A stretch of 64,000 bases of DNA from a virus. Of this stretch, positions 37,749 through 62,932 are shown piece by piece. Under the pieces are notes generated by a model. That model saw only the letters and a program-made list of their open reading frames with translations. It did no database searches and was not told where the DNA came from. Each line of letters starts with the position of its first letter. The first letter of the stretch is position 1. Where the stretch lies: the IMG/VR virus record IMGVR_UViG_3300040811_000687, one strand, 5' to 3'. The translations under genes were made by a program, and so were the position numbers.

Positions 37749-38188
37749 ATGAAGAAGTAAAGTGGTCGCAGGATAGTATGTTAGAAGTAACTCTAACTCA
37801 ACCAGATGATTTTTTAAAAGTCAGAGAAACACTTACTAGAATAGGTGTCGCAAGTAGAAAAGATAAAACATTATTTCAATCTTGTCATATTCTACATAAA
37901 CAAGGAAAATATTACATAGTACATTTTAAAGAGTTATTTGCTTTAGACGGCAAGAAAGCAACTCTAATTAACAACGATATTCAACGTAGAAATACTATTG
38001 CTATATTGTTACAAGACTGGAATTTAATAGATATTGTTGAAAAAGAAACAGCAATATCAAACAAGGCACCATTATCACAAATTAAAGTATTACCATTTAA
38101 AGAAAAAAAAGAGTGGATATTATCTGCTAAATATAACATAGGTAAAAAGGTAGTAAAAGAGACTGATAATGCAAATACCGAAGTTTAG
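37745..38188 (+). CDS. regA: Translational repressor RegA
   Basis: DDFLKVRETLTRIGVA, CHILHKQGKYYIVHFKELF. Confidence 0.96.
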   Translation: MNEEVKWSQDSMLEVTLTQPDDFLKVRETLTRIGVASRKDKTLFQSCHILHKQGKYYIVHFKELFALDGKKATLINNDIQRRNTIAILLQDWNLIDIVEKETAISNKAPLSQIKVLPFKEKKEWILSAKYNIGKKVVKETDNANTEV

Positions 38189-39650
38189 AGATTACATAAC
38201 AGAGAATACAAAGTCACGTAAGGGTAAAGCAATGACAGTTGCTATCCTAACTATAAACGATTCAAATAAACCTAACAAGGATTCAACTGTTGAACTTATA
38301 GAAAAAGCTTGTATCAAAAAAAAGATCAAGTGTATTATAGTCAATACAAAAACAACCATTATTACAGGTAAAGATGAAGATAAGAACACCCTAACAGTGT
38401 TTAACTACGATGGTAAGAATGGTGAACATACTTTCGTAGGTAAAGATACTGCCTGTATAACAAGAGGTGGTGCAGTGGAAGACGAAGCTGGACTGTCTTT
38501 AATATCTGCCTTTCAAAATTCACAATCTTTTATGATGAATACAAGAGCTTCTATGCTTACTTGTGATAATAAATTAACATCAGCTTTACTATTTGAAAAA
38601 AATGGTATACCTACACCAAGAACTGCTTTTATATCTAACGAAAAAAATATAAAAACAGGTTTAGATTTAATTGGTGGTAAGTTTCCTGTCATATTAAAAA
38701 CACTAACAGGTACACAAGGTGTCGGTGTAGTTAAAATAGAAAGTTATGAAGGCCTGGTTGCTACTGTACAAGCTATGTGGAAATTAGGTGCTGAACTTTT
38801 AATACAAGAATTTATGGAAACAAAGTTTGATGTAAGAACTTTTGTAGTAGATAATAAAGTTATTGCAAGTACAAAAAGAGTACATAGCTCATATGACTTT
38901 AGATCAAATACACACAGAGGTGCCGAGGCAATGCCTTATATTTTAAGTGATGAAGAACACGAACTAGTTTTAAAAACTTCAAGAGCTTCAAAAGCATATA
39001 TGGTAGGAGTTGACCATATAGTAAACAATAAAAAACCATACATTTTAGAAATCAATGGTAGTCCAGGATCAGGTGCTGATTATCAAGGTTACCAATATAA
39101 AGATTATTATTCTGATCCAGAACCATCTGGTAGAATAGACGGTGAAAAAATGATGGAATATCTAGTAGATTATATATCAGATAGAACTAATTGGGACAGA
39201 CAATCTTTAGTAGAGAGTGGTTGGTTAGAAACGGTAGAACTAGAAGATGGTTTAAAAGTCAGAGCAAAATTTGATACAGGTAACGGTGCTAAAGCATGTG
39301 CTTTACACGCCGATGATATTTTAAGTAAAGACAAAATTGTTAAATGGACATATGATGGTAAAACTTATAGTAAACCAAGACATGGTATAAGTAAAGTATT
39401 CAGAGCAAATGCTGAAGGAGAAGAACCATCAGAAACAAGACCAACAATTCTTATGGATATTACATTTAATGGTTTTACATATAAAGATGTAGAAGTAGGT
39501 TTAGATAATAGACCAAGAGCACATTCCGATTTGTTGGTGAATCGTGAGATAATGAGACAAATGAACATTAGTGTCAACCCTAATAGAACGTTTGTATTAA
39601 GTAAAAGACTAAAGCCGGTTGACAAAGACTACGATAAAGATGAAGAATAA
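38169..39650 (+). CDS. RimK-like ATP-grasp ligase fused to a RimB-like/retropepsin-type protease domain
   Basis: FPVILKTLTGTQGVGV, LIQEF, FRSN.HRG, GVD, LEINGSPG; C-terminal GWLE...AKFDTGN..ALHA...RP. Confidence 0.85.
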   Translation: MQIPKFRDYITENTKSRKGKAMTVAILTINDSNKPNKDSTVELIEKACIKKKIKCIIVNTKTTIITGKDEDKNTLTVFNYDGKNGEHTFVGKDTACITRGGAVEDEAGLSLISAFQNSQSFMMNTRASMLTCDNKLTSALLFEKNGIPTPRTAFISNEKNIKTGLDLIGGKFPVILKTLTGTQGVGVVKIESYEGLVATVQAMWKLGAELLIQEFMETKFDVRTFVVDNKVIASTKRVHSSYDFRSNTHRGAEAMPYILSDEEHELVLKTSRASKAYMVGVDHIVNNKKPYILEINGSPGSGADYQGYQYKDYYSDPEPSGRIDGEKMMEYLVDYISDRTNWDRQSLVESGWLETVELEDGLKVRAKFDTGNGAKACALHADDILSKDKIVKWTYDGKTYSKPRHGISKVFRANAEGEEPSETRPTILMDITFNGFTYKDVEVGLDNRPRAHSDLLVNREIMRQMNISVNPNRTFVLSKRLKPVDKDYDKDEE

Positions 39651-48230: not shown

Positions 48231-48238
48231 TATAAATA
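48231..48238 (+). promoter_or_regulatory. Late promoter
   Basis: TATAAATA. Confidence 0.7.
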
Positions 48239-48255: not shown

Positions 48256-49677
48256 ATGGCTTATAATTTAGCAACACTATCAACACTAACACAACACGTA
48301 CCGTCTAATATAAAGAAAGACTTTACTTCTTTATTAAATATGATGGTAGAGGGTGCATATTATGGCGATGATTCTCCTGTCACAAAATCTAAAGTCTACA
48401 TAGTAAAAGTATCTCCAGACAATTTAAAAAAAGTCCTACCTACACTAGAAAAAAAGTATACTGCTAAGATACAATCAGGTGCTAAAAAACAAGCAGACTT
48501 TATAGTACAAGGTTATAAGATTAAATTTATAGAAACAGGTAAGAAGTCTGTAAAACAACTAGACGCACAAGTCACAGCAAAACAAGAAAATGCCTCACTA
48601 TGGATTATAAGAAGAGCATTGAAAGACAATATTAGATATACTTGTCCTGAAGACATATCTAAAGACAAAAAATTTAAAGAACTAGTTAGAATATATCCAG
48701 ATGTGGTAGAAGATGAGTGGTTACAAAATTTTTATGCACAACAGAAAAAAATGTTAGAAGTGTTTAGAGGTAAATCATGGACAGAATATAACAGAGACGG
48801 TGGTTTTATGAATTATATCTCTAACGTAATAAGAGATAAGTTTAAGATTTCAAAAAAAGATAGTTGGAATCCTGCTGACATATGGTTAATTAAAAATGAA
48901 AATGATGTTAGAAGAACTATTGACAATGCAATGAAAGGTAACTCTGTATCTATATCTAAACTAAATGACGTAATGAAAACTTTATATAGTCAATACAAAT
49001 TGGCAGGTATATCATTAAAAAAAGTTTCAGGTAAAGAAGCAAAGTATGAAGAAGTAAATACTAAAAATGCATTGATGAAGGACTCCAAGTTTACAATGAA
49101 GTTAGATAGATCAGTTATGAAAATGGGTAACAAAACTGACAAGACATTAGTATCTGCTGATATGAGAATAGATATAAAGTCTGCTAACGATGTTTGCGAA
49201 TTTCAGATAAGACAAAACGGAAAAGGATTTAATCAGAATTTAAAATTTGATGGCAAATTCAAAGGTTCTGGTGCAGCTCGTATAGGAAAAGTACCAGTAG
49301 ACTTATTAGCAAGATTAATGGCCGAATATGGTGTAGGAAATAATAATAGATTATTTTTTGTAAATGATCATAATCAATATCCTAAATCATTGGCTGCCTT
49401 TGATAAGGTAAAATCGGTATACCTAAAACGATTTAAATTAGTAAACCGATATACTGATACGGGTATTACAGATAGTAAATTTATTGAAAGTATGATAAAA
49501 TCATATAACAGTAATGATCTAAAGAACGGTGTATCACATACTAAACTAATGGAACTAGATTTTTTATACTGTATTTACTCTATATCACCAGCAAAAAGAA
49601 ACAAAATGCTAACAGATATGGTGTTTTTAGCTGAGAAAAGAGGGTCACAATTTGGTCCTTTTGGCAAGTTATATTAG
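48256..49677 (+). CDS. Putative PD-(D/E)xK-like nuclease
   Basis: QE...DSWNPADIWLI...GISLKK pattern. Confidence 0.5.
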   Translation: MAYNLATLSTLTQHVPSNIKKDFTSLLNMMVEGAYYGDDSPVTKSKVYIVKVSPDNLKKVLPTLEKKYTAKIQSGAKKQADFIVQGYKIKFIETGKKSVKQLDAQVTAKQENASLWIIRRALKDNIRYTCPEDISKDKKFKELVRIYPDVVEDEWLQNFYAQQKKMLEVFRGKSWTEYNRDGGFMNYISNVIRDKFKISKKDSWNPADIWLIKNENDVRRTIDNAMKGNSVSISKLNDVMKTLYSQYKLAGISLKKVSGKEAKYEEVNTKNALMKDSKFTMKLDRSVMKMGNKTDKTLVSADMRIDIKSANDVCEFQIRQNGKGFNQNLKFDGKFKGSGAARIGKVPVDLLARLMAEYGVGNNNRLFFVNDHNQYPKSLAAFDKVKSVYLKRFKLVNRYTDTGITDSKFIESMIKSYNSNDLKNGVSHTKLMELDFLYCIYSISPAKRNKMLTDMVFLAEKRGSQFGPFGKLY

Positions 49678-49685
49678 TATAAATA
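49678..49685 (+). promoter_or_regulatory. Late promoter of the 49745-59439 operon
   Basis: TATAAATA. Confidence 0.75.
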
Positions 49686-49744
49686 TAAGTACTTGATATA
49701 TTGAATGAGAAAGTGAATTAATTTATGGATAAAATGAAAGAAAA

Positions 49745-50965
49745 ATGTTTAATTTTAAAGGTTTCATAACTAAAGAAAAAAACACACATTTAGAACATCT
49801 AGAAGACGATATAATTAATAGAGGTTCAAAAGGTGGCGATAATGCTATAAAGTTTCTAAAATCAATTAGAAACATGCTGGTAGGGTCATCTGGTGCCAAA
49901 GTAAATATGTCTGTCAAATGGGATGGTGCGCCTGCTATTGTGTGTGGTGTCAATCCAGAAAACGGTAAATTCTTTGTTGGTACTAAATCTGTATTCAACG
50001 CAACTCCAAAAATCAATTATACACCAGGTGATATTAGAAGTAATCATAGTGGACCTGTTGCAGATAAACTAAACGTTTGTTTAAGAGAATTAAAAAAATT
50101 AAGAATTACAGGTATCTATCAAGGAGATTTACTCTTTACAAACGATACTAAAATACAAAATATAGATGGTGAGGCCATGATAACTTTCACACCAAACACA
50201 ATTACATATGCAACACCAGTAAACTCTACTCTAGGTAAAAAAATTAGAAGAGCAAGAATGGGAATAGTATTTCATACAAGTTATACAGGTAAAGACATGA
50301 AAAGTTTAGGTGCTGGATTTGGTACAATATCTGGTAGATCAGGATCATCGGCAGTATTTTTAGCAAGTGCTGGTTATACAGATACTTCCGGTTCATCAAC
50401 ATTTACTAGTGGTGAACTATCTAGATTTGACGCCTTAATTAGAATGGCAGAGGGATCACTTTCAAAAGCTGCAACAATATTAAATGAAATGTCAAGATCA
50501 ACTGATTCTTTATCAGTTGGTTTCAGACTAAAGTCTTTTTTTAATCACTATATTAGAAACACACAAGGCCATATGGGTAAGGTTAAACAATTACAAAAAA
50601 TGTTTAGAGATTACTACGAGAATATTTTAACGGAAGAAATAGCAAATAGAAAAACAGAAAAAGGTAAACAAAAGTATAGAGATATATTAGATACTAACTT
50701 AAAATTTATAGATAGAAACGAACAAGCATTATATTTTACCATAGCTTCTCATGTAAGTTTAGGTAATGCAAAGAACTTTCTAATTCAAAAACTATCTCAA
50801 ATACAAAGTATCGGACATTTTATTAGAACATCAAGTGGTTACAGAGTAACTAATCCAGAGGGTTATGTTGCAGTAAGTAGAGCTGCTGGTGCAATTAAAT
50901 TAGTAGACAGATTAGAATTTAGTAGAGCAAACTTTACTATTGCTAAAGATTGGGTAAAAGGATAA
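49745..50965 (+). CDS. Conserved marine-phage protein with ATP-dependent ligase-like motifs
   Basis: KNTHLEHLED, KWDG (motif I-like), QGDLL, EGYV, KLVDRLEFS; N-terminal FKGFITKE. Confidence 0.6.
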   Translation: MFNFKGFITKEKNTHLEHLEDDIINRGSKGGDNAIKFLKSIRNMLVGSSGAKVNMSVKWDGAPAIVCGVNPENGKFFVGTKSVFNATPKINYTPGDIRSNHSGPVADKLNVCLRELKKLRITGIYQGDLLFTNDTKIQNIDGEAMITFTPNTITYATPVNSTLGKKIRRARMGIVFHTSYTGKDMKSLGAGFGTISGRSGSSAVFLASAGYTDTSGSSTFTSGELSRFDALIRMAEGSLSKAATILNEMSRSTDSLSVGFRLKSFFNHYIRNTQGHMGKVKQLQKMFRDYYENILTEEIANRKTEKGKQKYRDILDTNLKFIDRNEQALYFTIASHVSLGNAKNFLIQKLSQIQSIGHFIRTSSGYRVTNPEGYVAVSRAAGAIKLVDRLEFSRANFTIAKDWVKG

Positions 50966-51570
50966 TGAAAACATTTAAACAGTACGTTACAGAGGTAGAT
51001 AACAAATATGTTTATGCAGTTGAACAACCAAAGATTGTTTTAATTGGTGGTCCAGGTTCGGGTAAATCTACTTATGCAAAATTTTTAGTAAAAGAATTTA
51101 ATATAAAACATATCTATCCTGGTGATTTATTGAGAGCAGAAAAGGCCAAAGGTGGTGATATTGCAGATAGATTATCTGATTTAGGTAAAGGTGGTTTTGC
51201 ACCTAATGATATTGTTTTAGAACTAGTATTCAAGGCTGTTGCAGAGGCGAAAGGTGGTTTTGTATTTGATGGCTTTCCTAGATATATGCAACAAGTAAGA
51301 GATTTACAACACAAAAAGATTAGCATAAACAATGTGGTCTTTCTAAATGTAAGTGAAAAGGAAGTTATTAGAAGATTGACTGCTAGAGGTCGGGCTGATG
51401 ATAAACCAGAAATTATAAAGAATAGAATATCTTTATATAAAAAAGAAACCGGTCCTGTAATTGATTATTACAGAGATAAACAAGGATTCATAGAAATAAA
51501 AGCTGAAGGTGGAGAACCGGAAGAGATAGCAAATACAATAATAAATAAGGTTAAAAATGAAAACATTTAA
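50965..51570 (+). CDS. adk: Adenylate kinase-like NMP kinase (short LID)
   Basis: GGPGSGKST, GDLLR, FDGFPR, RGRADD. Confidence 0.88.
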   Translation: MKTFKQYVTEVDNKYVYAVEQPKIVLIGGPGSGKSTYAKFLVKEFNIKHIYPGDLLRAEKAKGGDIADRLSDLGKGGFAPNDIVLELVFKAVAEAKGGFVFDGFPRYMQQVRDLQHKKISINNVVFLNVSEKEVIRRLTARGRADDKPEIIKNRISLYKKETGPVIDYYRDKQGFIEIKAEGGEPEEIANTIINKVKNENI

Positions 51571-51913
51571 ACAGTACGAAAACAAAGTAGAAGAAATTGA
51601 TTCTATTTGTGAAAATATGAAATACGATGACCTTGTGGTAGAAGAAGCCGAACATCAAGGTAAAAAAGTAAAATTAAATAACCCTACCAGATCAAATGAT
51701 GGTAAAAAGAAGTTTTACGTATATGTAAAAAATGAAAAGGGTAATATAGTTAAGGTTGGATTTGGTGATCCGAATATGGAAATAAAAAGAGACGACCCTA
51801 ATAGAAGAAAGAATTTTAGAGCAAGGCACAACTGTGCTAATCCAGGTCCTAAATGGAAAGCAAGATACTGGAGTTGTTATCAGTGGAGAGCTGGCGCTAA
51901 GGTGGACAATTAA
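51557..51913 (+). CDS. Conserved basic phage protein
   Basis: KKFYVYV...FGDPNM...RRKNFRARHNC...ARYWSC; MKTFKQY N-terminus. Confidence 0.7.
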   Translation: MKTFKQYENKVEEIDSICENMKYDDLVVEEAEHQGKKVKLNNPTRSNDGKKKFYVYVKNEKGNIVKVGFGDPNMEIKRDDPNRRKNFRARHNCANPGPKWKARYWSCYQWRAGAKVDN

Positions 51914-51924
51914 AAGGAGATATA

Positions 51925-52584
51925 ATGTATATAAAAGGTGGAATGAAAAAACTAGGCAAAGCAATAGCAAAATCTACTAAAGAGAGTTTAGATAGAGAAA
52001 TAGCTATCGCAGAAGAGGAACAAAGAATAATGGATGAAGAAAATGGTATCAAATTTCCTACAAATCCGGAAATAGACCAAACATATGAAGCGCCTGAACC
52101 TATATTAAATGAAGATAGAAAGTTAGTTGAGTTGGCTGATGGTTCAAAATTAGAAGAAATGTCAATCAAAGAAAAGATTGGTACATGGTCACATAATTTT
52201 AATCAATTAGACCCACACAATAAATTTTTCTACTTGTTAGAACAAGGTAAAGGTATCGTTGAACTAGATGATACAAAAAGAATAAATGGATATAGAATAT
52301 ACGGATGTGTTAGTCAAGTATGGGTATTGCCGTCACTAAAAGATGAGAAGATGATCTTTGAAGTAGACGCTGACTCACATGAGGCTAGAGGTGTAATGTA
52401 TATTTTACAATCAATATTTTCAGGTCACTCACCATCTGAAATTTTAGAAGTAACAGATCAAGAAATAATTGATATAGGTTTCTTTGAAACATTGAACGAA
52501 AAAAGACGACATGGTACTTTTGCAGTAGTCAATGCTATAAGAACATATGCCAAAGATATGGTTGAAATGTTATCAGGCGAATAA
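51925..52584 (+). CDS. SufE-family sulfur-acceptor domain protein with acidic N-terminal extension
   Basis: GCVSQVWV, DADSHEARG, SPSEIL, L...RRHG. Confidence 0.8.
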   Translation: MYIKGGMKKLGKAIAKSTKESLDREIAIAEEEQRIMDEENGIKFPTNPEIDQTYEAPEPILNEDRKLVELADGSKLEEMSIKEKIGTWSHNFNQLDPHNKFFYLLEQGKGIVELDDTKRINGYRIYGCVSQVWVLPSLKDEKMIFEVDADSHEARGVMYILQSIFSGHSPSEILEVTDQEIIDIGFFETLNEKRRHGTFAVVNAIRTYAKDMVEMLSGE

Positions 52585-52596
52585 AACGGAACAGCA

Positions 52597-53289
52597 ATGA
52601 AAAATTTACAAGAAGTAAAAGCATTTTTAAATGAGGGTGTCTATGACAAAGGCATTTTCAAGGCCTTCTTCTTGGCGGGAGGACCTGGATCAGGTAAATC
52701 TTTCGTTACGCAAACCGCTTTTGCCGGTATAGGATTAAAAGTAGTAAACTCTGATACAATTTTTGAAAGAGAATTGTTAAAAGCAAACATGTCACTAAAA
52801 ATGCCAGATGAGGAAGCATACTTTAGAGATAAGATAAGAGCAAAAGCAAAAGTTACAGCAGGTTCACAATTAGACGCCTATGTAAAAGGAAGATTAGGAC
52901 TTGTTATTGACGCAACAGGTCGTGATAAAACTGTTATCAGTAGACAATATTCTATGTTAAAAGCAATAGGTTATGATTGTTATATGATCTTTGTAAACAC
53001 AAGTTTAGATGTGGCCTTAATGAGAAATGAATTAAGACCTAGATCAGTGCCAGAATATCTTGTAAAGAATAGTTGGAACAAAGTACAATCTAATATAGGT
53101 TCTTTTCAACAAATATTCAGACCAAGTAATATACTAATTGTTGATAACAATAGATCAGAAAAAGAATTAGTAACCAATACCATTCAAACTGCTTCAAAAT
53201 ATATTAGAAGACAAATGAATAAACAGCCAGATAATTATCTAGCAAAACAATGGATAGCAAGAGAACTAGCAGCTAAGAAAAGAATATGA
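52597..53289 (+). CDS. P-loop kinase (zeta-toxin/AAA_33-like)
   Basis: FLAGGPGSGKS, VNSD..FE, VIDATG, FVNTSL..A..RN. Confidence 0.8.
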   Translation: MKNLQEVKAFLNEGVYDKGIFKAFFLAGGPGSGKSFVTQTAFAGIGLKVVNSDTIFERELLKANMSLKMPDEEAYFRDKIRAKAKVTAGSQLDAYVKGRLGLVIDATGRDKTVISRQYSMLKAIGYDCYMIFVNTSLDVALMRNELRPRSVPEYLVKNSWNKVQSNIGSFQQIFRPSNILIVDNNRSEKELVTNTIQTASKYIRRQMNKQPDNYLAKQWIARELAAKKRI

Positions 53290-55595
53290 TTAAAAAATTT
53301 AAAGATTATTTAATTAAAGAAAGTATCATAGATATACCTAGAAAAACATATGCTCCTGGTGTATTTGATAAGGCTGATAGTAAAGACCCTATAATAAAAC
53401 CTAGTGTCAAAAAACAAATACAAGATCAGATTAAAGAATTTGAAAAAGAATATCCTGTTATTAAGATAGCATTAATAGGATCAATACTAACAAAGAGATA
53501 TAGAAATGACGCTGATCTTGACATTAATGTATTGTTTGATGTGCCAAAAGAAAAACAAGAACAAGAAAGAGTTGATCTTTCTCAAAAGTATTTGTCAGCA
53601 AAGAACCCAAAAAATATTCAAGGTAAGTTAATACCTGGTACACAACACCCTATCAACTATTATTTTTTAACTGATCAATCAACTTATGATGATCAAAATA
53701 AAAAAGCAGACGCAGTGTTTGATATAGAAAACGATAAGTTTATTAAAAGACCAGACGACTTTACTTTTGATACAAACTTATATGTAAAAGAATTTGAAAG
53801 AAAAGTACAAGAGTTAGATGTAATTAAAGGTGAATTAAAAAGAGATATAATAGATTACAATGAATTAGTTGAATTACAACCAGATGATATCTTAAACTTA
53901 CAAGACAAAATTAATACAAAGTTAGAAGAAATAGAAGATAGTATTTCAGATATAATAAAGATAGGTGATGGTGTTGACGCAGAAAGAAGATCAGCATTTA
54001 ATAGTGATATGACACCAGATCAAATAAGAAAGTATGGTGTTAAAAATAGATTACCTAAAAATGTTATCTATAAAATGTTAGAGAAATACCACTATTTAAA
54101 ATTTTATAAAAAATGTAAACAGATTTTAGATGATGGTAAAGTTACAGACGATGAGATAAAAAGTTTGACTAACGAACAAATAGATGAAATGAATTTAGAA
54201 TCTATTGCTTCAGCATGGAACGACATAATTAGAAGAACAATTAAAGCACCTCAAATGAAAAGAGGTGTACAATTATATTTAAAATATTTAAGACAAGGTA
54301 TGAAAGACGCTAAGAACAAGGCGGCTCAACATGCTGGTATAGACTACAATGAATTTGGTAAGGCAGTTAGAGACGCTGGTTTACCTGAAGAAGTAAACGA
54401 AGAAATAAGAAGACCAAGAAAATCAGTTGCATTTACTTTTGGTAGATTTAATCCACCAACTATAGGACATGAAAAACTTATTAGAAAAGTTAAGTCAGTA
54501 AGAGCAAATGATCACAAAATTTATTTGAGTAGAAGTGAAGACAGTAAGAAAAATCCATTATCGCCAAGTCAAAAACTAGCGTATATGAAAAAGATGTTTC
54601 CTTCTCACGCAAGAAATATAGAGATTAATAAAACTAATATGATATTAGATATAGCTACTACTTTACATAATAAAGGTTATACAGAGGTGTTTATGGTAGT
54701 AGGCAGTGACAGAGTAAGTGAATTTACAACCATATTAAACAAATACAACGATGTAAAATCAAGACATGGTTACTATAACTTTGACAACATCAATGTATTA
54801 TCAGCAGGTGAAAGAGATCCAGACGCAGAGGGAGCTTCAGGTATGAGTGCAAGTAAAATGAGAGCTGCAGCTGCCAAAGACGATATAGGTTCTTTTAAGA
54901 AAGGTTTACCTAGTGGTGTAAACGCTGCTGATCTAATGAAAGATGTTAGAAAAGGTATGAGATTAGAAAATTTAGTTGATCAACCATCTACAAAAATGTT
55001 AACTATGGAACAATTTGATCAACAACAAATAAGAGACTTATATTTGAGAGATATGATATTTAATATCGGAGAAAAGGTAGACTATACCAAACAAGATATA
55101 AAAGGAACAGTTAAAAGAAAAGGTACAAACTATATTGTACTAGAAGATAACAATAATAATTTACATAAAGCCTGGATATGGGATTGTATACCAATCGCCA
55201 GTGATAAAGAGGTTGCAGTTAGAGAACATAATTTAAATGTAGACTATGGCTTTAAGGCTGTATCTGAAAAGAAATATAATAAGATATTTGCCGACTTAAA
55301 GAAAGAAATTACGATGAAATTAGAGAAAGAAGCACATGAAATAGGCGCCGATTATGCCAATCATACTAAAGAAGTAACACCTGGTGAGGTTCCAGAAGCT
55401 AAACCAGTTGACGCAAAAAAGAGAGGGTGGCCTACACAAGGTTACAAAGAGATTAAGACAGAGGAAATATCTGAAAAAGATGTAAATAATTGGGCAAGTG
55501 AAGCAGATACAATAGATAAATATAAACAAAGATTTAAGGAGGAGTGGAAAATCAAGTTAGATGAGGCTGTGGCCAAAATGATCAGAGACTTGTAA
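53286..55595 (+). CDS. Multidomain protein: Pol-beta-type nucleotidyltransferase + HxGH (cytidylyltransferase-like) nucleotidyltransferase + C-terminal domain
   Basis: IGS.......DADLDI; FGRFNPPTIGH...VGSDR...SAGERDPD...MSASKMR. Confidence 0.8.
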   Translation: MIKKFKDYLIKESIIDIPRKTYAPGVFDKADSKDPIIKPSVKKQIQDQIKEFEKEYPVIKIALIGSILTKRYRNDADLDINVLFDVPKEKQEQERVDLSQKYLSAKNPKNIQGKLIPGTQHPINYYFLTDQSTYDDQNKKADAVFDIENDKFIKRPDDFTFDTNLYVKEFERKVQELDVIKGELKRDIIDYNELVELQPDDILNLQDKINTKLEEIEDSISDIIKIGDGVDAERRSAFNSDMTPDQIRKYGVKNRLPKNVIYKMLEKYHYLKFYKKCKQILDDGKVTDDEIKSLTNEQIDEMNLESIASAWNDIIRRTIKAPQMKRGVQLYLKYLRQGMKDAKNKAAQHAGIDYNEFGKAVRDAGLPEEVNEEIRRPRKSVAFTFGRFNPPTIGHEKLIRKVKSVRANDHKIYLSRSEDSKKNPLSPSQKLAYMKKMFPSHARNIEINKTNMILDIATTLHNKGYTEVFMVVGSDRVSEFTTILNKYNDVKSRHGYYNFDNINVLSAGERDPDAEGASGMSASKMRAAAAKDDIGSFKKGLPSGVNAADLMKDVRKGMRLENLVDQPSTKMLTMEQFDQQQIRDLYLRDMIFNIGEKVDYTKQDIKGTVKRKGTNYIVLEDNNNNLHKAWIWDCIPIASDKEVAVREHNLNVDYGFKAVSEKKYNKIFADLKKEITMKLEKEAHEIGADYANHTKEVTPGEVPEAKPVDAKKRGWPTQGYKEIKTEEISEKDVNNWASEADTIDKYKQRFKEEWKIKLDEAVAKMIRDL

Positions 55596-55606
55596 TACAC
55601 CGTACT

Positions 55607-57259
55607 ATGACTAAATACAGAAAAACAATGGCAGAAGCCTGGAACGAGGCAAATTTAATAGAGAGTGGTCTAATGGGAACTATGACCGATACTCAATTAG
55701 CAAACATCAAAAAAGTGTGGGCTAAAAAGACTATGAGAGACGTAACACCAGGCATAAAAAGTATGCTTGATAAAATGGATATGCCAACTAAAGTTGCTGT
55801 AAAACATGCTGGTATTAATATTCTTTCTAAAATAGTATTAAAAGATGAAGTAGATATGTCAGTTGATGTTTCAGAAACATACACTGTAGTTATCACTAAA
55901 AAAGATGGTTCAAAAATGGAACTAGGCAAGTATAATACTCCTGCTGAGGCACAAAAATATGTTGACATGTATGGTAAAGGTGCTAAGATTAAAAAAGAAG
56001 AACTTCAAGGTCAAAAAGAAAAGAATAAAGACGAACTAGAAGAAGGCAAAATGTCAGACATTGACGCCATGCAAAAAGATGGTGCCTCTGCTAAAGACAT
56101 TGCTAAAGCATTAAAGATTTCAGTAGCAACAGTTAAAGATATACTAGGCGAAGACGAACAACAAAACAAAGAAGATTTAGAAGAGTCTTTTAGTCCTGCT
56201 ATGTTACAAAAATTAAAAACAGAATTTGGTCCTTTAAAAGGCAAAACTATTACAGCTGCTAGAGCAAAACAGTTGATGAATATTTTAGACAAATTAAAAG
56301 ATAAAGATTTAGAAACTTTAAAAGGTGCAGGTATACCTTTTGTTTCTGGTGGTGCAATGTCTAAACTGTCAGTAAGAAAAATGAAATTCAAAGTAACTAC
56401 AATTACTCCTTTCGGAGAAGAAACAATTGAAGAATCTTATACAGTAAAATATGTAGACCCTTTAAATAAAAAGAACTTACGTATGAAACATGCTAATGAA
56501 AAAGACGCTCAAGATATGATGGATAGATTAAAAAAAGCTGGCGTTAAAGATATTAAAGTCGTAAAAGAAGAAGACGCTTACGATAAAGATGATGAGAAAC
56601 CAAAAAAACCTAAACCTAAAAAAGAAGATTTAGACGAGGATTCATTTGAAGAAGCATGTTGGGTAGGTTTTAAACAAGTAGGTATGAAAGATAAAGGTGG
56701 TAAACAAGTACCTAATTGTGTACCTGAAGAAAACGATTTAGACGAAGAAGTATTAGATGAAATGGCTGCTTTAAGAAAAAAAGCAGATAAGTCTGGTATA
56801 TCGTATAGTATTCTAAAGAAAGTATTTGATAGAGGTATGGCTGCTTGGAAAGGTGGTCACAGACCAGGTGCAAGTCAGCACCAATGGGCTTACGCTAGAG
56901 TAAATTCATTTATCACAAAAGGTAGTGGTACATGGGGTGGCGCAGATAAAGATTTAGCTAAACAAGCAAGAGGTCAAAAAGAAGACCTTGACGCAGTGCC
57001 ACAAGATAGAGACGTTAAGAAAAAAGATGGTACTCAACCTAAAAAATACTATAAAGGTTTAAGTAAAGATGTTAAAGACGCAAGAGCTTCACACTTTAAG
57101 AACAATGATTCTAACAAAGAGGCACCAGGAGATAAAGAAGCAAAAACTAAACCATCTATTCACACACAAAAATATAAAAAGATGTATGGTGAGGGTGCAA
57201 GAGAATTAGTATTAAAATTTTTAAAACAAAAAATGCAAACTTCCAAGGAGGAAAAATAA
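55607..57259 (+). CDS. Modular charged polyprotein, probable internal head protein
   Basis: Small modules separated by LEE/IEE/LDE linkers: HTH-like, CWVGFKQVG..VPNCV, RGMAAW..GHRPG..QWAYARVNSF. Confidence 0.65.
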   Translation: MTKYRKTMAEAWNEANLIESGLMGTMTDTQLANIKKVWAKKTMRDVTPGIKSMLDKMDMPTKVAVKHAGINILSKIVLKDEVDMSVDVSETYTVVITKKDGSKMELGKYNTPAEAQKYVDMYGKGAKIKKEELQGQKEKNKDELEEGKMSDIDAMQKDGASAKDIAKALKISVATVKDILGEDEQQNKEDLEESFSPAMLQKLKTEFGPLKGKTITAARAKQLMNILDKLKDKDLETLKGAGIPFVSGGAMSKLSVRKMKFKVTTITPFGEETIEESYTVKYVDPLNKKNLRMKHANEKDAQDMMDRLKKAGVKDIKVVKEEDAYDKDDEKPKKPKPKKEDLDEDSFEEACWVGFKQVGMKDKGGKQVPNCVPEENDLDEEVLDEMAALRKKADKSGISYSILKKVFDRGMAAWKGGHRPGASQHQWAYARVNSFITKGSGTWGGADKDLAKQARGQKEDLDAVPQDRDVKKKDGTQPKKYYKGLSKDVKDARASHFKNNDSNKEAPGDKEAKTKPSIHTQKYKKMYGEGARELVLKFLKQKMQTSKEEK

Positions 57260-58113
57260 TGAGTTATTTAAAAAATAAGCCAAACTCTTTAGAAGATATG
57301 GCAAAACAAATGCAGATACACACTAATGAATCTGATTACAAAGATAAGTTTAAAAAAGAATTAGACAAAGCCGGCAAAGGTATAGGTTCTATGACGCCAA
57401 AAGAAAAAAAAGATTTTTTTAATAAGATAGACAAAATGCATACGGCAAAAACAGAAAACGTTAAAGAAGAAGTTAATTGGACAGAAGCTGCTGAAGAACA
57501 AGAGAAAAGATCAGACGAAGCTAAGTATTATAAACCTGAAGAAGTTGAAGAAGCAACATATGGTTGGACTTTAGTTTCAAAAGCAAAAGATATTGCTAAA
57601 AAATTCAAAGATAATATATCAAAAGCTGTGGCAGAAATAGAAAAAATAGAAAAAGGTTTATCTAAAAATCCTACAGTTGACGCAGAGTTAAGAAAGTACA
57701 ATGAAAATTTAGAAGAAAAATACGAAGAAAAAGAAAAAAAAGATGATAGCTCAAAGGAAAAAGAACTAAAGATCAAACTAGATAAAGAAAAAGATACAGA
57801 CGCTTTAGAAAAACAGAATATAACTTTACAAGGTCAAGTCAATATTCTGAAACAAAAATTAGAAAACGAAAAGAATAAAGCTCTTAAGCCAGCACCTAAT
57901 AAAGATACAGGCGAAGTACCTTTATCTGTTGGTATTGCTTACAAACATCTAAAAGATAAGATGAAAACTGAAGCTGCTAAGTATAAAAAAGAACAAAAAA
58001 AAGACGAAACTCAAACTAGAGATCAAGAAATGGCAGACCCTAAAGGTAAAACTGATACAGGCCAGCCTAAAACTCCAGTTGAAATGAATCCAAAAATTAA
58101 CCACTCGTTTTAA
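57259..58113 (+). CDS. Lys/Glu-rich probable internal head protein
   Basis: Highly charged; VKE/VEE/LEE sites; KKDFFNKIDK module. Confidence 0.55.
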   Translation: MSYLKNKPNSLEDMAKQMQIHTNESDYKDKFKKELDKAGKGIGSMTPKEKKDFFNKIDKMHTAKTENVKEEVNWTEAAEEQEKRSDEAKYYKPEEVEEATYGWTLVSKAKDIAKKFKDNISKAVAEIEKIEKGLSKNPTVDAELRKYNENLEEKYEEKEKKDDSSKEKELKIKLDKEKDTDALEKQNITLQGQVNILKQKLENEKNKALKPAPNKDTGEVPLSVGIAYKHLKDKMKTEAAKYKKEQKKDETQTRDQEMADPKGKTDTGQPKTPVEMNPKINHSF

Positions 58114-58124
58114 GGAGAATATAG

Positions 58125-58952
58125 ATGGCGTGGGTAGATATCGCAGGATTAAAAAATACATTTGAACATTCAGAGGAGTTTAACGACTCTTATTGGACAA
58201 AAAACGAATGTACTATTACTGCTAATGCTACAACAGCACCAGACGGTACTCTAACAGCTGATAAACTAACAGAAAGTGCAACTGCTAATAAGGGACATAG
58301 TGTTAGTAGATATGTCGGTGGTAGTGGTACTACAAACGGTTGCTCTTATAGTGTATATGTGAAACCAGATACACGAACTAAATTCGCTATAGGTTTAGCT
58401 TTTAGTCCAGATAGTCTAACAGTTAATGCAAAATTTGATTTAACAGCAGGTACAGTTATTAGCAAAGGTAATCCTTATGGTCATGCTGTAACAGAGGCCT
58501 CTATACAAAAAATTGGTGATGATGGTTGGTTTAGATGTATTATACAAAATGGAACAAGTGGAGGAGCTTTTAATCCTAGTTGTTATCTAACAACAATGGA
58601 CGACAGTAATGACACCACGCCAGCTTCAGGTTCAGGAAGTATTTTTATCTGGGGTGCAATGTGGCAATTAGAACATGAAACTGTTGTTAATGGTACTAAC
58701 GCTGGTAGATATGTTTATAGTGGTGGTTCTTCAGGTGTTGAAGGAAGTTTATGGCAATATGAAAATGCTGCTACAGCAGCTAATACATATCCTGATTCCG
58801 CTGACGGTGCAAACTCAACTGTGTCTGGTGGAATAAGAACACACACAAGACCAGGAACTAGTGCTGTTACAAAAACATATTTAAGAACTAGAAAAAAAGG
58901 AACTACAGTTGAGAGAGGTGAGTTGTCACATACTTACTATCATGGACAATAA
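58125..58952 (+). CDS. Virion protein with a carbohydrate-binding/fibre-type domain
   Basis: SEEF..SYWTK..TITANATTAPDGTLTADKL...GWFRC...IFIWGA module; AAGGAG RBS. Confidence 0.55.
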   Translation: MAWVDIAGLKNTFEHSEEFNDSYWTKNECTITANATTAPDGTLTADKLTESATANKGHSVSRYVGGSGTTNGCSYSVYVKPDTRTKFAIGLAFSPDSLTVNAKFDLTAGTVISKGNPYGHAVTEASIQKIGDDGWFRCIIQNGTSGGAFNPSCYLTTMDDSNDTTPASGSGSIFIWGAMWQLEHETVVNGTNAGRYVYSGGSSGVEGSLWQYENAATAANTYPDSADGANSTVSGGIRTHTRPGTSAVTKTYLRTRKKGTTVERGELSHTYYHGQ

Positions 58953-59439
58953 AAAAACAAGAATATATTGTGACATGGATGGTGTCCTTTGCGACTTTGT
59001 AAAGGGTGTTGAGAAACTACATGGTATAACTATTAATAACTGGTCATACGGAAGTAAAACTGAAAAGTGGGCTAAAGTAAAAGCAACACCTAAATTTTGG
59101 CATACGTTACCATGGCATACTGGTGGTAGACAACTCTGGTCTTTCATATCAAAGTATAAGGCACATATACTATCAGCATACGTAGAGGAAAGTTTTGATC
59201 CTAATTGTATACCAGGCAAGACACATTGGGCAAGAACAAATTTAGGTATATCAGGTAATAGAATTAATCTAGTTAAACGAGTGCAAAAACAAAATTACGC
59301 AAGGGTCATGGGCAGTCCTGCCATTCTAATAGATGACTATAAGAAGAATACAGATCAATTTAAAGCAAAGGGTGGTATAGGCATACACCATACAACAGTA
59401 GGTAACACTTTAAGAGAGTTAAGATCACTAGGTTTCTAA
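58942..59439 (+). CDS. HAD-family 5'(3')-nucleotidase-like phosphatase
   Basis: IYCDMDGVLCDF, ILS, GK..W, LIDD, GGIGI.H. Confidence 0.85.
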   Translation: MDNKKTRIYCDMDGVLCDFVKGVEKLHGITINNWSYGSKTEKWAKVKATPKFWHTLPWHTGGRQLWSFISKYKAHILSAYVEESFDPNCIPGKTHWARTNLGISGNRINLVKRVQKQNYARVMGSPAILIDDYKKNTDQFKAKGGIGIHHTTVGNTLRELRSLGF

Positions 59440-59450
59440 CTTATTTCCGT

Positions 59451-59458
59451 TATAAATA
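59451..59458 (+). promoter_or_regulatory. Late promoter
   Basis: TATAAATA. Confidence 0.75.
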
Positions 59459-59506
59459 GTGTTAGTTATAACAACAAAGTTAATTAATTAATTAAGGAGA
59501 AAAACA

Positions 59507-60079
59507 ATGGCTTTATGGGGAAACGATATTAAACCCAAAAACTTAACCGAAGCTGAGAAGAAGGAAGTATACGCTACTGCTTCAGGCTGGGTTAGAGAAG
59601 CGGGTTCAATTCTTTCAGGTAATGATAACACAGCTGCTACACCAGAAGTTTTGGTTGCAGTTGGTCAACTTGCTACTAATATGGGTGCAGGTGACATTAC
59701 TGAAATAGAATTTATTACGACAGCATTTGATAAATCTGCTGGCGGAACACTACAAGTAAGAGTAAGATTTAATGAAGACGTAACTGTAACAGGTACACCA
59801 CAATTATCAGTAACAAATGGTAACGAAGGTACTGGTACAGGTAGAGGTCCTCATGTATTATCTTATACTTCAGGATCAAATACTAACGAATTGGTATTCG
59901 GCTTGACTATAGGTGCTGCTGACGCTGCTACCGAGGCTGACGATGTACTAACAATTGGTGCTAACGCAATGTCACTTAACGGTGGTACAGTAAAAGATAG
60001 AGGTACGGCAACGAACTCTACTATTACTAACGCTTCATCAATAGGTACAGCTGCTGGTTCAATTACAGTTGTAGCATAA
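59507..60079 (+). CDS. Virion structural protein with Ig-like C-terminal domain
   Basis: MALWG..., FNEDVTVTGTPQL, Y.SGS.TNELVF; AAGGAG RBS. Confidence 0.65.
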   Translation: MALWGNDIKPKNLTEAEKKEVYATASGWVREAGSILSGNDNTAATPEVLVAVGQLATNMGAGDITEIEFITTAFDKSAGGTLQVRVRFNEDVTVTGTPQLSVTNGNEGTGTGRGPHVLSYTSGSNTNELVFGLTIGAADAATEADDVLTIGANAMSLNGGTVKDRGTATNSTITNASSIGTAAGSITVVA

Positions 60080-60091
60080 TAATAATAAATT

Positions 60092-60117
60092 TATAGGGGT
60101 CCTAAAAAGCCCCTATA
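60092..60117 (+). terminator. Hairpin with CCTAAAAA loop
   Basis: TATAGGGGT-CCTAAAAA-GCCCCTATA. Confidence 0.5.
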
Positions 60118-60186
60118 TAATAATAACAATTGATGTAGTCAAATGGCTACAGTAGCATTCCCGAAAGGGTTTAAAAAGGAGAAAAA

Positions 60187-60648
60187 ATGGCAGACAAAAA
60201 AGTAACACAATTAACTGATCTAGGCGACGCTCTAGATACAGCAGATTTATTTCACGTAATAGATGACCCGAGTGGCACACCTATTAACAAAAAAATTTCA
60301 GCTGAAAATGTATTCAACAATATTCCAAGTTGGATTGCATTAAAACAAACAGCACAAACAATTACAGCAAGTGGTTCAACTCAAGCAGCTGATCTAACTT
60401 CAGCAGTGACTTTGATTGACGCTACTTCAAACACAGCACCAACAACACTAGCAGCTGCTTCAACAGATGGACAAATTAAAACAATTTTAAATTCATCTAC
60501 AAGTGGTACAAATGCAGTGACAATTACACCATCAAACTTTAAACAAGGTACAACAGTTACGTTAAACGCTCCAGGTGAGTCAGTAACTATGATTTACAAG
60601 TCAAGTTTTTGGTATATAATCGGTGGTGAGGGTTACGTAGTAGCTTAA
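60187..60648 (+). CDS. Virion structural protein
   Basis: MADKKVTQLT...DDPSGTPINKKIS, DGQIKTI; AAGGAG RBS. Confidence 0.65.
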   Translation: MADKKVTQLTDLGDALDTADLFHVIDDPSGTPINKKISAENVFNNIPSWIALKQTAQTITASGSTQAADLTSAVTLIDATSNTAPTTLAAASTDGQIKTILNSSTSGTNAVTITPSNFKQGTTVTLNAPGESVTMIYKSSFWYIIGGEGYVVA

Positions 60649-60682
60649 TATATAATATAATATAATATAATAGGAGTATATA

Positions 60683-60880
60683 ATGATAATTGATGAGAAA
60701 TTATTACTAGAGGAAAAAGAGAAGTTAACAAAAGAGTTTAATGATCTTGCCTCTAAAATTAAGAGTGTTGAGTTAAATGTAGGTACTATGAAAGCAAATT
60801 TAAATGCAATTAATGGTGCTATACAACAAACAGACAATCTTTTAAATAAGGTAAAAGAACAAAAAAATGAAAAAATTTAA
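60683..60880 (+). CDS. Small coiled-coil protein
   Basis: LNAINGAIQ heptads; AGGAG RBS. Confidence 0.6.
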   Translation: MIIDEKLLLEEKEKLTKEFNDLASKIKSVELNVGTMKANLNAINGAIQQTDNLLNKVKEQKNEKI

Positions 60881-61004
60881 ATCATTCATAAAAGAAGAAG
60901 ATTTAAAAGACTTTGAGGAAGATTGTTTAGCAGGCAAAAAACCTGTTAAACAACCGACCGAAGAAACAGAAAAAAAGGAAACTAAAGAAGATGAAAACAT
61001 TTAA
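60867..61004 (+). CDS. 45-aa acidic peptide with capsid-targeting-like N-terminus
   Basis: MKKFKSFIKEEDLKDFEED...ENI; overlaps both neighbours; not in the ORF track. Confidence 0.55.
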   Translation: MKKFKSFIKEEDLKDFEEDCLAGKKPVKQPTEETEKKETKEDENI

Positions 61005-61419
61005 GAAGTACTTAAACGAACAACATGGAATAGGCGTTGGTACACCGGAAGTTAACTCTGTAGAAGATGGTAGCATTGGTGTTCACAATATACATGATCC
61101 TGAAGTTTTAAAAAGAGTAAATGCTTTTGTGGGATCAATAGGCGAAAGAGAATACATTAAACCAGGTTTTGCAATTGACGAGCTGAGAACAAAATTATCT
61201 AAAATAGGATTAGAAGTTAGTCCTTGTGCTATGGATGGTGACAGCGGAACAGTTAATTGTGAAGTTACTGCTTACGGCGGAAGATTTGGTAAAGATATAG
61301 ATGGTTCTGATATTAATGATGATGGTATATCACACAAAAAAGAGGGTGGCCTTAAACTAGAGGTTAAGTACGAAACATTAAAAACAGGAACATCAAAAGT
61401 CTACGCTAAATTAGTATAG
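60991..61419 (+). CDS. Conserved hypothetical protein
   Basis: MKTFKKYLNE...RVNAFVG...YGGRFGKD. Confidence 0.65.
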   Translation: MKTFKKYLNEQHGIGVGTPEVNSVEDGSIGVHNIHDPEVLKRVNAFVGSIGEREYIKPGFAIDELRTKLSKIGLEVSPCAMDGDSGTVNCEVTAYGGRFGKDIDGSDINDDGISHKKEGGLKLEVKYETLKTGTSKVYAKLV

Positions 61420-61425
61420 GTTATA

Positions 61426-61788
61426 ATGTTCAAAGAAATAACCAAAGAAAACTGGTTGCTTTTTGCACAGCATAATTATGATAATCCTACTCTAGAAGAT
61501 GAGAAGGAATTCTATGAAGATATTAAAAGAATAAGATATCTAAAAAGGTTATTTCGTAAGTATAGTGTAACAGGTAAACTAAAAGTTAGATTAGTAGTTA
61601 ATCACTTGATAGTATTACAAAACGTATTCGGAGTTGAATGTGCCGTTTCACTATTACTGTTTAAAATAGATAGTAAATATTGGGGAATATTAAAATCTTT
61701 TTTAGAGTACCTTGAATACTTATATCCACACGAGTTAAAAAGTATTGAAAGAGATTCTGAAATACAAAGATTATTAGAGGAACTATAA
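61426..61788 (+). CDS. Conserved T4-like hypothetical protein
   Basis: FAQHNYDNP, EFYEDIKRIRYLKRLF, NHLIVLQNVFG. Confidence 0.75.
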   Translation: MFKEITKENWLLFAQHNYDNPTLEDEKEFYEDIKRIRYLKRLFRKYSVTGKLKVRLVVNHLIVLQNVFGVECAVSLLLFKIDSKYWGILKSFLEYLEYLYPHELKSIERDSEIQRLLEEL

Positions 61789-62264
61789 TGAATAGAGGTG
61801 TAGATTTATTAATAACATATAGAATTATCAAGATGTTATCAACACCATTTAATAAGCAAGACGCTTTTAAATATGGTATCATTGACGACAAAGGTACTGT
61901 ATTAAGAAAGTTTAGAACTATCACAAGTCCAAAAGAAAAGAGAGCATATACTTTACTTCATAGATTTGTATTCAATCTAAAAAGACTACTAGCCAAAGCA
62001 GGAGTTAGAGGTGCTTTAGGTTCTTTTGCAGTTGCAGCCGCTCTTTTATTTAAAGAAAATAAAGAGGCTAAAAAACATCAATTAATAATAGAATCCGCTG
62101 TGATCACATACTTAAAACAAACAGATCAGTATGACTCTATGTTATCAGAAAACATAAATATACCAGACATACAGGAGACGCCAATTATGAATTGTTTTGG
62201 TGTTGACGTGTTTGAACAAAACGGAGAATTAATAAGCGAGTACGATTATGACAAAACATTATAA
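61788..62264 (+). CDS. Conserved T4-like hypothetical protein
   Basis: YRIIKMLSTPF..DAFKYGIIDDKG, YTLLHRFVFNLKR. Confidence 0.75.
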   Translation: MNRGVDLLITYRIIKMLSTPFNKQDAFKYGIIDDKGTVLRKFRTITSPKEKRAYTLLHRFVFNLKRLLAKAGVRGALGSFAVAAALLFKENKEAKKHQLIIESAVITYLKQTDQYDSMLSENINIPDIQETPIMNCFGVDVFEQNGELISEYDYDKTL

Positions 62265-62616
62265 AGCAATGATGGATGAACTCATCAATAAGATGGACGA
62301 AGACGCTCCAACTAACGCCACAGGTACAGCCGTTGCAGGTACAGGTGATGACAATACGGTACATGCTTTAACAAAATCACATAACAAATATAAAAGGGAT
62401 AACTTATCTACAGCAAAAGGATATGTTGGTTCTGTTGTACCTTTATCAACAAAAATTAAAGAAAGTGATGACAATAATAATGTAGTATTAAAAGGTGTAC
62501 TAGATAAAATTGATAGTATAGAAATTAAAATAGATGAAATGACAGAAACACCTACGGAGATTGTTGAAGAACAAGAACCACAATACAAAACATTTAGGGA
62601 CAAATACAATGCGTAA
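62248..62616 (+). CDS. Hypothetical protein
   Basis: MDEDAPTNATG.AVAGTG motif. Confidence 0.6.
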   Translation: MTKHYKAMMDELINKMDEDAPTNATGTAVAGTGDDNTVHALTKSHNKYKRDNLSTAKGYVGSVVPLSTKIKESDDNNNVVLKGVLDKIDSIEIKIDEMTETPTEIVEEQEPQYKTFRDKYNA

Positions 62617-62932
62617 TTTCAAATCATTTAAAGAATATTTTACTGGTCAAATAAATGCAAATAAAGAATATGATTTAAAAGACAAAGCTTTATATTACAA
62701 ACTTGTAAGGCAGGCTATGTCAGTTATGCCTGGTTCTGAAAAGCAAAAACAAATTAAAAAAGAAATTGAAAGAGTACAAAAAAGATTGGGTATTAAAGAA
62801 TATGTAGGTGGGTCTATCGGTGGCCAAAGAGGACCAGGTCTAGGAAATTTTAGACCAATGGCCAGTATGAAAAAACAAGAAGGCACAGCACTACATGGAT
62901 ACCTAATCAAAGCAGGTATCTTAAAAAAATAA
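62609..62932 (+). CDS. Hypothetical protein
   Basis: MRNFKSFKEY...AM..MPGSEKQK. Confidence 0.55.
   Translation: MRNFKSFKEYFTGQINANKEYDLKDKALYYKLVRQAMSVMPGSEKQKQIKKEIERVQKRLGIKEYVGGSIGGQRGPGLGNFRPMASMKKQEGTALHGYLIKAGILKK

Follow-up and report, generated by a model that had tools for sequence, protein, structure and literature searches.

The window analysed here, a stretch of 64,000 nucleotides from the virus record IMGVR_UViG_3300040811_000687 of IMG/VR, includes a late gene block (positions 49678 to 62932) in which several unrelated proteins, among them a predicted RNA-ligase-like enzyme, an adenylate kinase and a nucleotidyltransferase, start with the same short N-terminal leader. Computational analysis revealed that this leader is conserved in related viruses, modular and essentially confined to the block, that the block follows a T4-type late promoter, and that a T4-type prohead protease and scaffold are encoded in the same window. 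We consider it rather likely that the shared N-terminus is a capsid targeting sequence (CTS) of the type described in phage T4. Since what looks like the head-loading tag of T4 stands on several unrelated enzymes of a late operon, the phage probably carries a ready-made kit of enzymes in its virion. By analogy with T4, injection of these enzymes and a catalytic role in the next host are plausible.

A prediction made earlier from the letters of the window (the original prediction) had listed eight leader-bearing N-termini, and all eight are starts of open reading frames (ORFs) on the + strand, located at 49745, 50965, 51557, 52597, 53286, 60867, 60991 and 62609. A ninth leader, missing from that list, was found on a RimK-like gene at 38169, outside the late block. 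The pattern [FYW]xx[FYW][ILVM]x(1-3)E, beginning within the first 7 residues, occurs in 6 of the 80 window genes vs 0.21 expected, and the N-terminal pattern F[KR]x[FY] occurs in 9 genes vs 0.45 expected, where the expected counts were taken from the internal frequency of the pattern in the window proteins. The bearers belong to different Pfam families, and the tag is located at the very N-terminus. The leaders of 50965 (M-K-T-F-K-Q-Y-V-T-E), 60867 (M-K-K-F-K-S-F-I-K-E) and 60991 (M-K-T-F-K-K-Y-L-N-E) are canonical, and those of 53286 (M-I-K-K-F-K-D-Y-L-I-K-E) and 38169 (M-Q-I-P-K-F-R-D-Y-I-T-E) are canonical but offset by one or two residues. The leader of 52597 is weak in this phage and clear in its orthologues, where M-K-T-F-x-x-I...[LI]-x-E is found directly ahead of G-[LV]-Y-D.

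The internal proteins (IP) of T4 were read from NC_000866: IPI starts with M-K-T-F-K-E-F, and both IPII and IPIII start with M-K-T-Y-Q-E-F-I-A-E. Like the canonical window leaders, the CTS of IPI, IPII and IPIII (Mullaney and Black 1996, reviewed in PMC9026906 and PMC3012670) is a tag of about 10 residues counted from Met1 and found on unrelated proteins; its positions 4 and 7 are aromatic, position 8 is aliphatic and position 10 is Glu. Over their first seven residues the window leaders nearly coincide with IPI. In T4, residues 4 and 7 have been mapped as the determinants of targeting and residues 8 and 10 as those of processing, and an Asp at position 10 stops cutting but not targeting (PMC9026906). 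Of the targeting positions, 4 is Phe and 7 is Phe or Tyr (or His) in the window leaders and their orthologues. The processing residues, an aliphatic at 8 and Glu at 10, are present in 50965, 60867, 60991, 53286 and 38169, and in 100% of the cyanophage cytidylyltransferases described below. The likeness to the T4 CTS that had been claimed is thus supported at the mapped targeting positions and, in these leaders, at the mapped processing positions. For control, the strict leader pattern was run on 132 ORFs of two T4 regions, where it retrieved ipII and ipIII alone, and on 199 ORFs of the deposited record of Pelagibacter phage Mosig, which is without the enzyme block and where the RimK orthologue was the single hit. 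Two further T4 genes are matched by the looser pattern only: 57B, which adjoins ipI and starts with M-M-E-F-K-D-F (a leader-like F-K-x-F), and rnlB, which starts with M-F-K-K-Y.

Conservation of the leader was assessed in 80 IMG/VR loci in which the product of 49745, a DUF6267 protein, is 66-99% identical to that of the window. The leader pattern was found in 74 of 77 DUF6267 orthologues and in all adenylate kinase orthologues, four of which have GTG or TTG starts. It is also present in orthologues of the kinase encoded at 52597, of the nucleotidyltransferase-cytidylyltransferase protein encoded at 53286, of the 118-amino-acid protein (51557), of the 45-amino-acid peptide (60867) and of the 142-amino-acid protein (60991). 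In the same 80 loci it was never found on orthologues of the neighbours 47957, 48256, 55607, 57259, 58942, 59507, 60187 and 61426, nor on replication genes. Expressed as ORF counts, which are not independent events, the leader is present in 4/398 ORFs upstream of DUF6267 vs 160/500 at or downstream of it. The loci of the relatives also hold further small leader proteins that are not in the window. Restriction of the leader to late genes, a check proposed with the original prediction, holds in that the leader is essentially confined to the block, and does not hold for the RimK-like gene at 38169, which lies among replication genes.

Inside the leader the codons vary: Gly6 is encoded by four codons, Ser3 by both TCN and AGY, and Glu by GAA and GAG. 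This synonymous variation indicates that selection acts on the peptide. The leader is also separable from the protein that follows it. When full-length DUF6267 proteins were clustered at 50% identity, about 55 to 60 of the 102 representatives had the leader, and nine began directly at M-x(1-4)-N-T-H-L-E-H, the mature end predicted for the protein. In one whole separate T4-like lineage, DUF6267 is leaderless (it starts with M-A-K-N-T-H-L-E-H) and the adjacent cytidylyltransferase is leader-bearing. In some loci of this lineage the leader of the cytidylyltransferase seemingly begins at a non-ATG start.

All genes of the window are on the + strand. In its major capsid protein (16409-17743) the window phage shares 86% identity with Mosig and 71% with HTVC008M, by which it is a marine T4-like phage of SAR11 bacteria, a pelagimyophage of the Kyanoviridae. 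One IMG/VR record, 98% identical, spans window positions 7466-51505, and a megablast search of the enzyme block against isolate phages produced no match. The machinery that handles a CTS in T4 has counterparts here. A gp21-type prohead protease, the presumed leader-processing enzyme, is encoded at 14483-15127 (PF03420 at 1.9e-34, phrog_207); it shares 36% identity with T4 gp21, including the G-E-L-x-H-P and G-V-S-S-R-G stretches with their His and Ser, and TATAAATA sits 37 nt upstream of its gene. The leader is presumed to dock onto a gp22-type scaffolding core protein, which is encoded at 15196-16386 (PF25623 T4_CASP at 6e-70); both Pfam matches are above the cut-offs. This scaffold is the strongest outlier of the window in density of [ILVM]xE sites (21 vs 10.5 expected, z 4.0), a richness that fits a retained gp21 specificity. 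The capsid protein has a conserved T4-type maturation site, ...F-M-T-E/A-A (the slash marks the cut), aligned at the position of the T4 gp23 cut site ...F-L-T-E/A-E. A candidate late sigma factor (23572-24153) is 47% identical to S-CREM2 gp55.

The window has 11 exact copies of TATAAATA, a T4-type late promoter, all of them on the coding strand; 10 are intergenic and precede a gene by 13-100 nt, and the intergenic copies include those ahead of structural genes and those at 48231, 49678 and 59451. In the 80 related loci (780 kb), all 142 exact copies are on the coding strand. The chance expectation for the window is about 13 copies on the + strand and 7 on the - strand. The coding-strand count is thus near chance, and what is notable is the absence from the other strand together with the intergenic placement. 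Copies with one mismatch are below expectation (206 vs 271 in shuffles), so only the exact motif is informative. The two late promoters named in the original prediction were located where it had placed them. The predicted promoter of the enzyme operon (49678-49685) is 67 nt ahead of the DUF6267 start. The motif lies at most 130 nt upstream of DUF6267 in 62/72 related loci, upstream of 0/47 gp41 genes, and never before 47957. The predicted promoter of the second operon (59451-59458) is 56 nt ahead of 59507 and is kept in 9/9 related loci. A third candidate (48231-48238), kept in 6/6 related loci, is 25 nt upstream of a leaderless 473-amino-acid gene (48256-49677, phrog_1462). Most leader genes overlap the stop of the preceding gene, and the genes behind 49678 overlap or abut without promoters of their own; on this gene arrangement a late operon behind 49678 is well supported. 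A sigma-70 promoter scan returned 58 sites vs 80 expected and is therefore uninformative on early transcription. The best sigma-70-like site of the region (60593-60620; TTTACA, a 16-nt spacer and TATAAT, 11/12) is located just before gene 60683 in the second late operon.

Evidence that leader-bearing proteins reach the virion came from cyanophage homologues of the C-terminal domain of the 53286-55595 protein. The cytidylyltransferase T4-GC190, a cyanophage core gene, was detected in purified S-SM1 virions (PMC3037559), and the cytidylyltransferase gp154 was detected in the virions of S-CREM2 (PMC10665884). The authors of the latter study remarked that cyanophage virions frequently contain cytidylyltransferases and kinases, which may pass into the host. 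S-SM1 gp190 and S-CREM2 gp154 are both homologous to the domain in question, are found in the same neighbourhood and have the same leader: the N-termini are M-K-K-F-S-A-F-L-N-E/A in S-SM1, M-K-K-F-S-A-F-L-S-E/A in Syn9 gp184 and M-K-N-F-S-S-F-L-T-E/A in S-CREM2, whose gene has TATAAATA 28 nt upstream. The leader is present in 119 of the 120 closest database homologues of this cytidylyltransferase, with free variation only at position 9. The difference from the window is that here the domain is fused to a Pol-beta-type nucleotidyltransferase. The virion flags of S-SM1 proteins were obtained by aligning File S1 of Sullivan 2010 to the T4-GC notes of the S-SM1 GenBank record (the last column is one row off at high cluster numbers). 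In S-SM1, DUF6267 (T4-GC71) is leaderless and has no virion flag. Five other proteins of the S-SM1 block are flagged, so the block is a virion-protein module in which the leader is not the sole way in. The claim of a packaged payload is thus supported in part, through homologues of one cargo family, which were found with the same leader in the virions of two cyanophages. The cytidylyltransferase of PMC7238727 was considered as a source of transcript timing and set aside, as it is a different, lipopolysaccharide-type orthologue. A search of a limited collection of papers found none linking a CTS to cyanophages or pelagiphages, and the virion papers name no targeting signal.

The first gene behind the operon promoter encodes DUF6267 (49745-50965, PF19782 at 9e-120), with the leader M-F-N-F-K-G-F-I-T-K-E. 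In a family of 98 sequences K58, D60, E372, G373 and K385 are invariant and G61 is nearly so, which corresponds to ligase motifs I (KxDG), IV (EG) and V (K), and the stretch of motifs IV and V can be aligned with T4 Rnl1. The AlphaFold2 model has a mean pLDDT of 91 and a pTM of 0.88, and only residues 1-10 are below pLDDT 50. When it was compared by VIA-align with 48,161 chains, the nine best matches were RNA ligases (Z 7.7-6.5), followed by DNA ligases, all with Z below 8. The best was the Naegleria nick-sealing ligase 5cot (Z 7.7, rmsd 4.0, 185 residues aligned); fungal Trl1 (Z 7.4) and T4 Rnl1 (Z 7.0) were further matches, and T4 Rnl2 was among the best ones. With all Z values below 8, the ligase fold is likely but not proven. 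Foldseek, run on the model with the PDB as target, retrieved nothing at an E threshold of 0.001, hhalign against T4 Rnl2 gave nothing, and phmmer searches of DUF6267, the kinase and the nucleotidyltransferase-cytidylyltransferase protein against PDB sequences gave nothing useful. The original wording "ligase-like" agrees with the invariant KxDG and with the nine top structural matches. In BFVD the DUF6267 family includes a fusion to cytidylyltransferase in S-PM2.

The other putative cargo genes follow. The adenylate kinase (50965-51570) has its leader and a linker ahead of the P-loop; the Pfam match (PF00406 at 8e-34, 117 bits vs a cut-off of 26.8) starts at residue 26, the Pfam and NCBIfam matches taken together start at residues 23-26, and the NCBIfam adenylate kinase models match below their stricter cut-offs. 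With the DUF6267 match starting at residue 13, the leader is located ahead of the catalytic domain, as had been noticed for the adenylate kinase. The next gene (51557-51913) encodes a 118-amino-acid protein (phrog_7595) with a variant leader, M-K-T-F-K-Q-Y-E. A P-loop kinase of 230 amino acids (52597-53289), with a variant leader ending in L-N-E/G, matches AAA_33, Zeta_toxin and the polynucleotide kinase (PNK) family phrog_505 (3.5e-8). Its family aligned with the whole kinase domain of T4 PseT (Pnk) over 133 columns with an hhalign E of 4e-4 and a probability of 33%. The name "zeta-like kinase" originally proposed is better replaced by PNK-like, in view of phrog_505 and the alignment to PseT. 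The protein encoded at 53286-55595 consists of a Pol-beta-type nucleotidyltransferase fused to an HxGH cytidylyltransferase-like domain (PF01909, PF01467, phrog_395, phrog_3041). Behind the second promoter lie the genes of the 45-amino-acid acidic peptide with a canonical leader (60867-61004), which is conserved in related loci; the 142-amino-acid protein (60991-61419), in which Glu at position 10 is kept in all canonical orthologues; and a 107-amino-acid protein with a partial leader, M-R-N-F-K-S-F-K-E (62609-62932), to which none of the related loci retrieved offered an orthologue. After the leader, the ORF at 60867 has a very acidic tail of 35 residues; the peptide is 41-69 amino acids long in relatives and recalls the acidic internal peptides of the T4 head. 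The RimK-type ATP-grasp ligase (38169-39650; PF08443 at 1e-38, TIGR00768), which also has a retropepsin/Zn_protease-like domain, keeps its leader in the Mosig orthologue, annotated as 'putative glutathione synthetase', and in one IMG/VR orthologue. Its gene overlaps the end of regA and is the only leader-bearing gene of the window outside the late block.

From the T4 precedent we infer the following pathway. Promoters of the gp55 type with the sequence TATAAATA would drive late transcription of the leader genes. Positions 4 and 7 of the leader would dock the new proteins onto the gp22-type core of the growing prohead, and the gp21-type protease would cut after the Glu of the aliphatic-x-Glu motif and free the mature enzymes inside the head. 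The enzymes would then exit with the DNA at the next infection, by analogy with IPI-III and Alt of T4. The predicted cargo includes the RNA-ligase-like DUF6267, the adenylate kinase, the PNK-like kinase, the fusion of Pol-beta and HxGH nucleotidyltransferase domains, the RimK-like ligase and several small proteins. An RNA-ligase-like protein next to a PNK-like kinase suggests RNA repair; with the Pol-beta nucleotidyltransferase, the HxGH domain and the HAD phosphatase of the operon, the set would resemble a heal-and-seal RNA-repair kit, to which an adenylate kinase is added. The most likely use of these enzymes would be as a pre-made RNA-repair and nucleotide kit acting ahead of any phage gene expression.

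Several observations weigh against this interpretation. Two enzymes of the same operon, the SufE-like protein and the HAD phosphatase, are leaderless, and no exact TATAAATA was found near the leader-bearing RimK-like gene at 38169, which is among replication genes. For these reasons the earlier argument that late metabolic enzymes make little sense otherwise was overstated. The leader of DUF6267 is non-canonical, with Glu at position 11, where 54% of the distinct orthologue N-termini have Asp; 51557 and 62609 keep the aromatic pair and have no aliphatic-x-Glu in register. The isolate HTVC008M has degenerate versions of the leader on the same enzymes, and the orthologue counts given above are not independent events. 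The virion evidence is limited to homologues of one cargo family, the cytidylyltransferase; the authors of PMC10665884 warned of possible co-purification, and the other virion proteins of the S-SM1 block have no canonical leader.

Other explanations of the shared N-terminus were weighed. The leader could direct proteins to the prohead where they serve only in the head or its assembly, as core components, scaffold accessories or DNA-condensing proteins, and are not delivered as enzymes. T4 does target purely morphogenetic core proteins, which gp21 cuts, the acidic peptide of 60867 and the other small leader proteins are closer to T4 internal peptides than to enzymes, and the block encodes clearly structural virion proteins in S-SM1. 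However, the catalytic residues are invariant across the DUF6267 family, the P-loop and HxGH motifs are retained, enzymes with nucleotide substrates have no obvious role in a DNA-filled head, and Alt and the IPs of T4 are ejected and active in the host; we regard a function restricted to the head as unlikely. We give a similarly low probability to the idea that the leader is no capsid signal and reflects some other selection on the N-terminus. Such selection might act on the start of translation in an AT-rich genome, on binding by a chaperone or modifying enzyme, on regulated degradation or on a different address within the cell. The A/T-rich first codons (ATG AAA ACA TTT AAA), the weak Shine-Dalgarno sequences and the leader-bearing gene among replication genes are in favour of this idea. 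Nonetheless, what is conserved is the class of residue and not the nucleotides, as seen in the synonymous codons and in serine codons of both codon families, and the pattern coincides with the experimentally mapped positions of the T4 CTS. In addition, about 250 further genes of the composite genome, highly expressed structural ones included, do not have the leader, and leader-bearing homologues occur in virions.

The shared start could also be a functionless relic of cassette shuffling, left by recombination at a conserved 5' segment. The genes 50965 and 51557 are identical in their first 21 nt, and the IP loci of T-even phages are polymorphic behind a conserved CTS. This idea was already disfavoured and we consider it very improbable: orthologues whose identity is as low as about 36-48% still have the leader, across pelagiphages and three cyanophage clusters, and the position-specific constraints, together with the free position 9, point to purifying selection. 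The T4-type CTS is the explanation that we prefer. A wider proposal built on it is tentative and, in our judgement, somewhat doubtful. It states that T4-like phages of SAR11 bacteria and of picocyanobacteria may routinely load a sequence-predictable set of working enzymes, of the kinds predicted here as cargo, through a T4-type leader and inject it with the DNA, and that RNA repair and control of the nucleotide pool would then start before phage expression in slow, ribosome-poor hosts. The tag would be gained and lost gene by gene, as with DUF6267, so that the injected arsenal would differ between lineages.

With respect to the IP system of T4, the window phage shares the gp21 protease and gp22 scaffold homologues and the T4-type late promoter. 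The differences are that its cargo consists mostly of large enzymes, whereas the T4 IPs are small basic anti-restriction proteins; that its leader genes lie together in a single late block between gp41 and gp61; and that several of its leaders deviate (Glu at position 11 or Asp, a register shift, or no aliphatic-x-Glu). A precedent for the type of cargo is T4 Alt (PMC5694885), a large enzyme (an ADP-ribosyltransferase) that T4 packs into its head, that gp21 trims after a Glu and that is delivered with the DNA, as is predicted here. However, Alt has a 6-residue propeptide cut at I-T-E plus a second, C-terminal cut, while the window enzymes have an IP-type leader. The resemblance to T4 Pnk (PseT) and Rnl1 concerns the ligase motifs I, IV and V of DUF6267, the alignment of the kinase with the Pnk kinase domain and the HAD phosphatase in the operon. 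It is a remote resemblance (Z below 8; hhalign probability 33%), and the T4 enzymes have no CTS and are not known as packaged.

If the preferred explanation is correct, it would provide a mechanism for the recurrence of cytidylyltransferases and kinases in purified cyanophage virions (2010, 2023), which had none, and the packaged, probably injected proteome of the most abundant myophages of the ocean could be read from sequence. It also suggests a pre-positioned RNA-repair and nucleotide kit that would counter host defences that target RNA or deplete nucleotides. Tagged and untagged versions of the same enzyme in related phages are natural controls. The principle would not be new, as T4 does likewise with the IPs and Alt; this would be a new instance of a known T4 mechanism.

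The DUF6267 block is located between DNA polymerase and gp61 in the window and in HTVC008M, and is missing from the Mosig record. That record (MT647606.1) has partial genes at both ends and is without uvsX, gp41 and the whole block, so it was unusable as a whole-genome test of the block; the deposited record is probably an incomplete genome.

Other genes of the region are leaderless. The SufE-like protein (51925-52584, PF02657 at 5e-24) is present in only 4/80 related loci, and its sulfur-acceptor domain is preceded by an N-terminal extension of 90 residues. Downstream of the nucleotidyltransferase fusion, positions 55607-59439 encode a 550-amino-acid DUF5824 protein, a charged protein of 284 amino acids, a tail-protein-like protein of 275 amino acids and the HAD 5'-nucleotidase-like phosphatase, with no leader in any orthologue. 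In the 55607-58113 region, the DUF5824 protein has a helix-turn-helix-like stretch and the 284-amino-acid protein is Lys/Glu-rich. The possibility that these two are polyproteins rich in protease sites found no support, as their [ILVM]xE densities have z values of 1.0 and -1.0. The S-SM1 protein SSM1_191, a counterpart by position, is flagged as a virion protein. Two structural-looking proteins are encoded at 59507-60648; the one at 59507 is homologous to the virion-flagged S-SM1 protein SSM1_195 (T4-GC425), and the one at 60187 has a weak match to Phage_depo_C.

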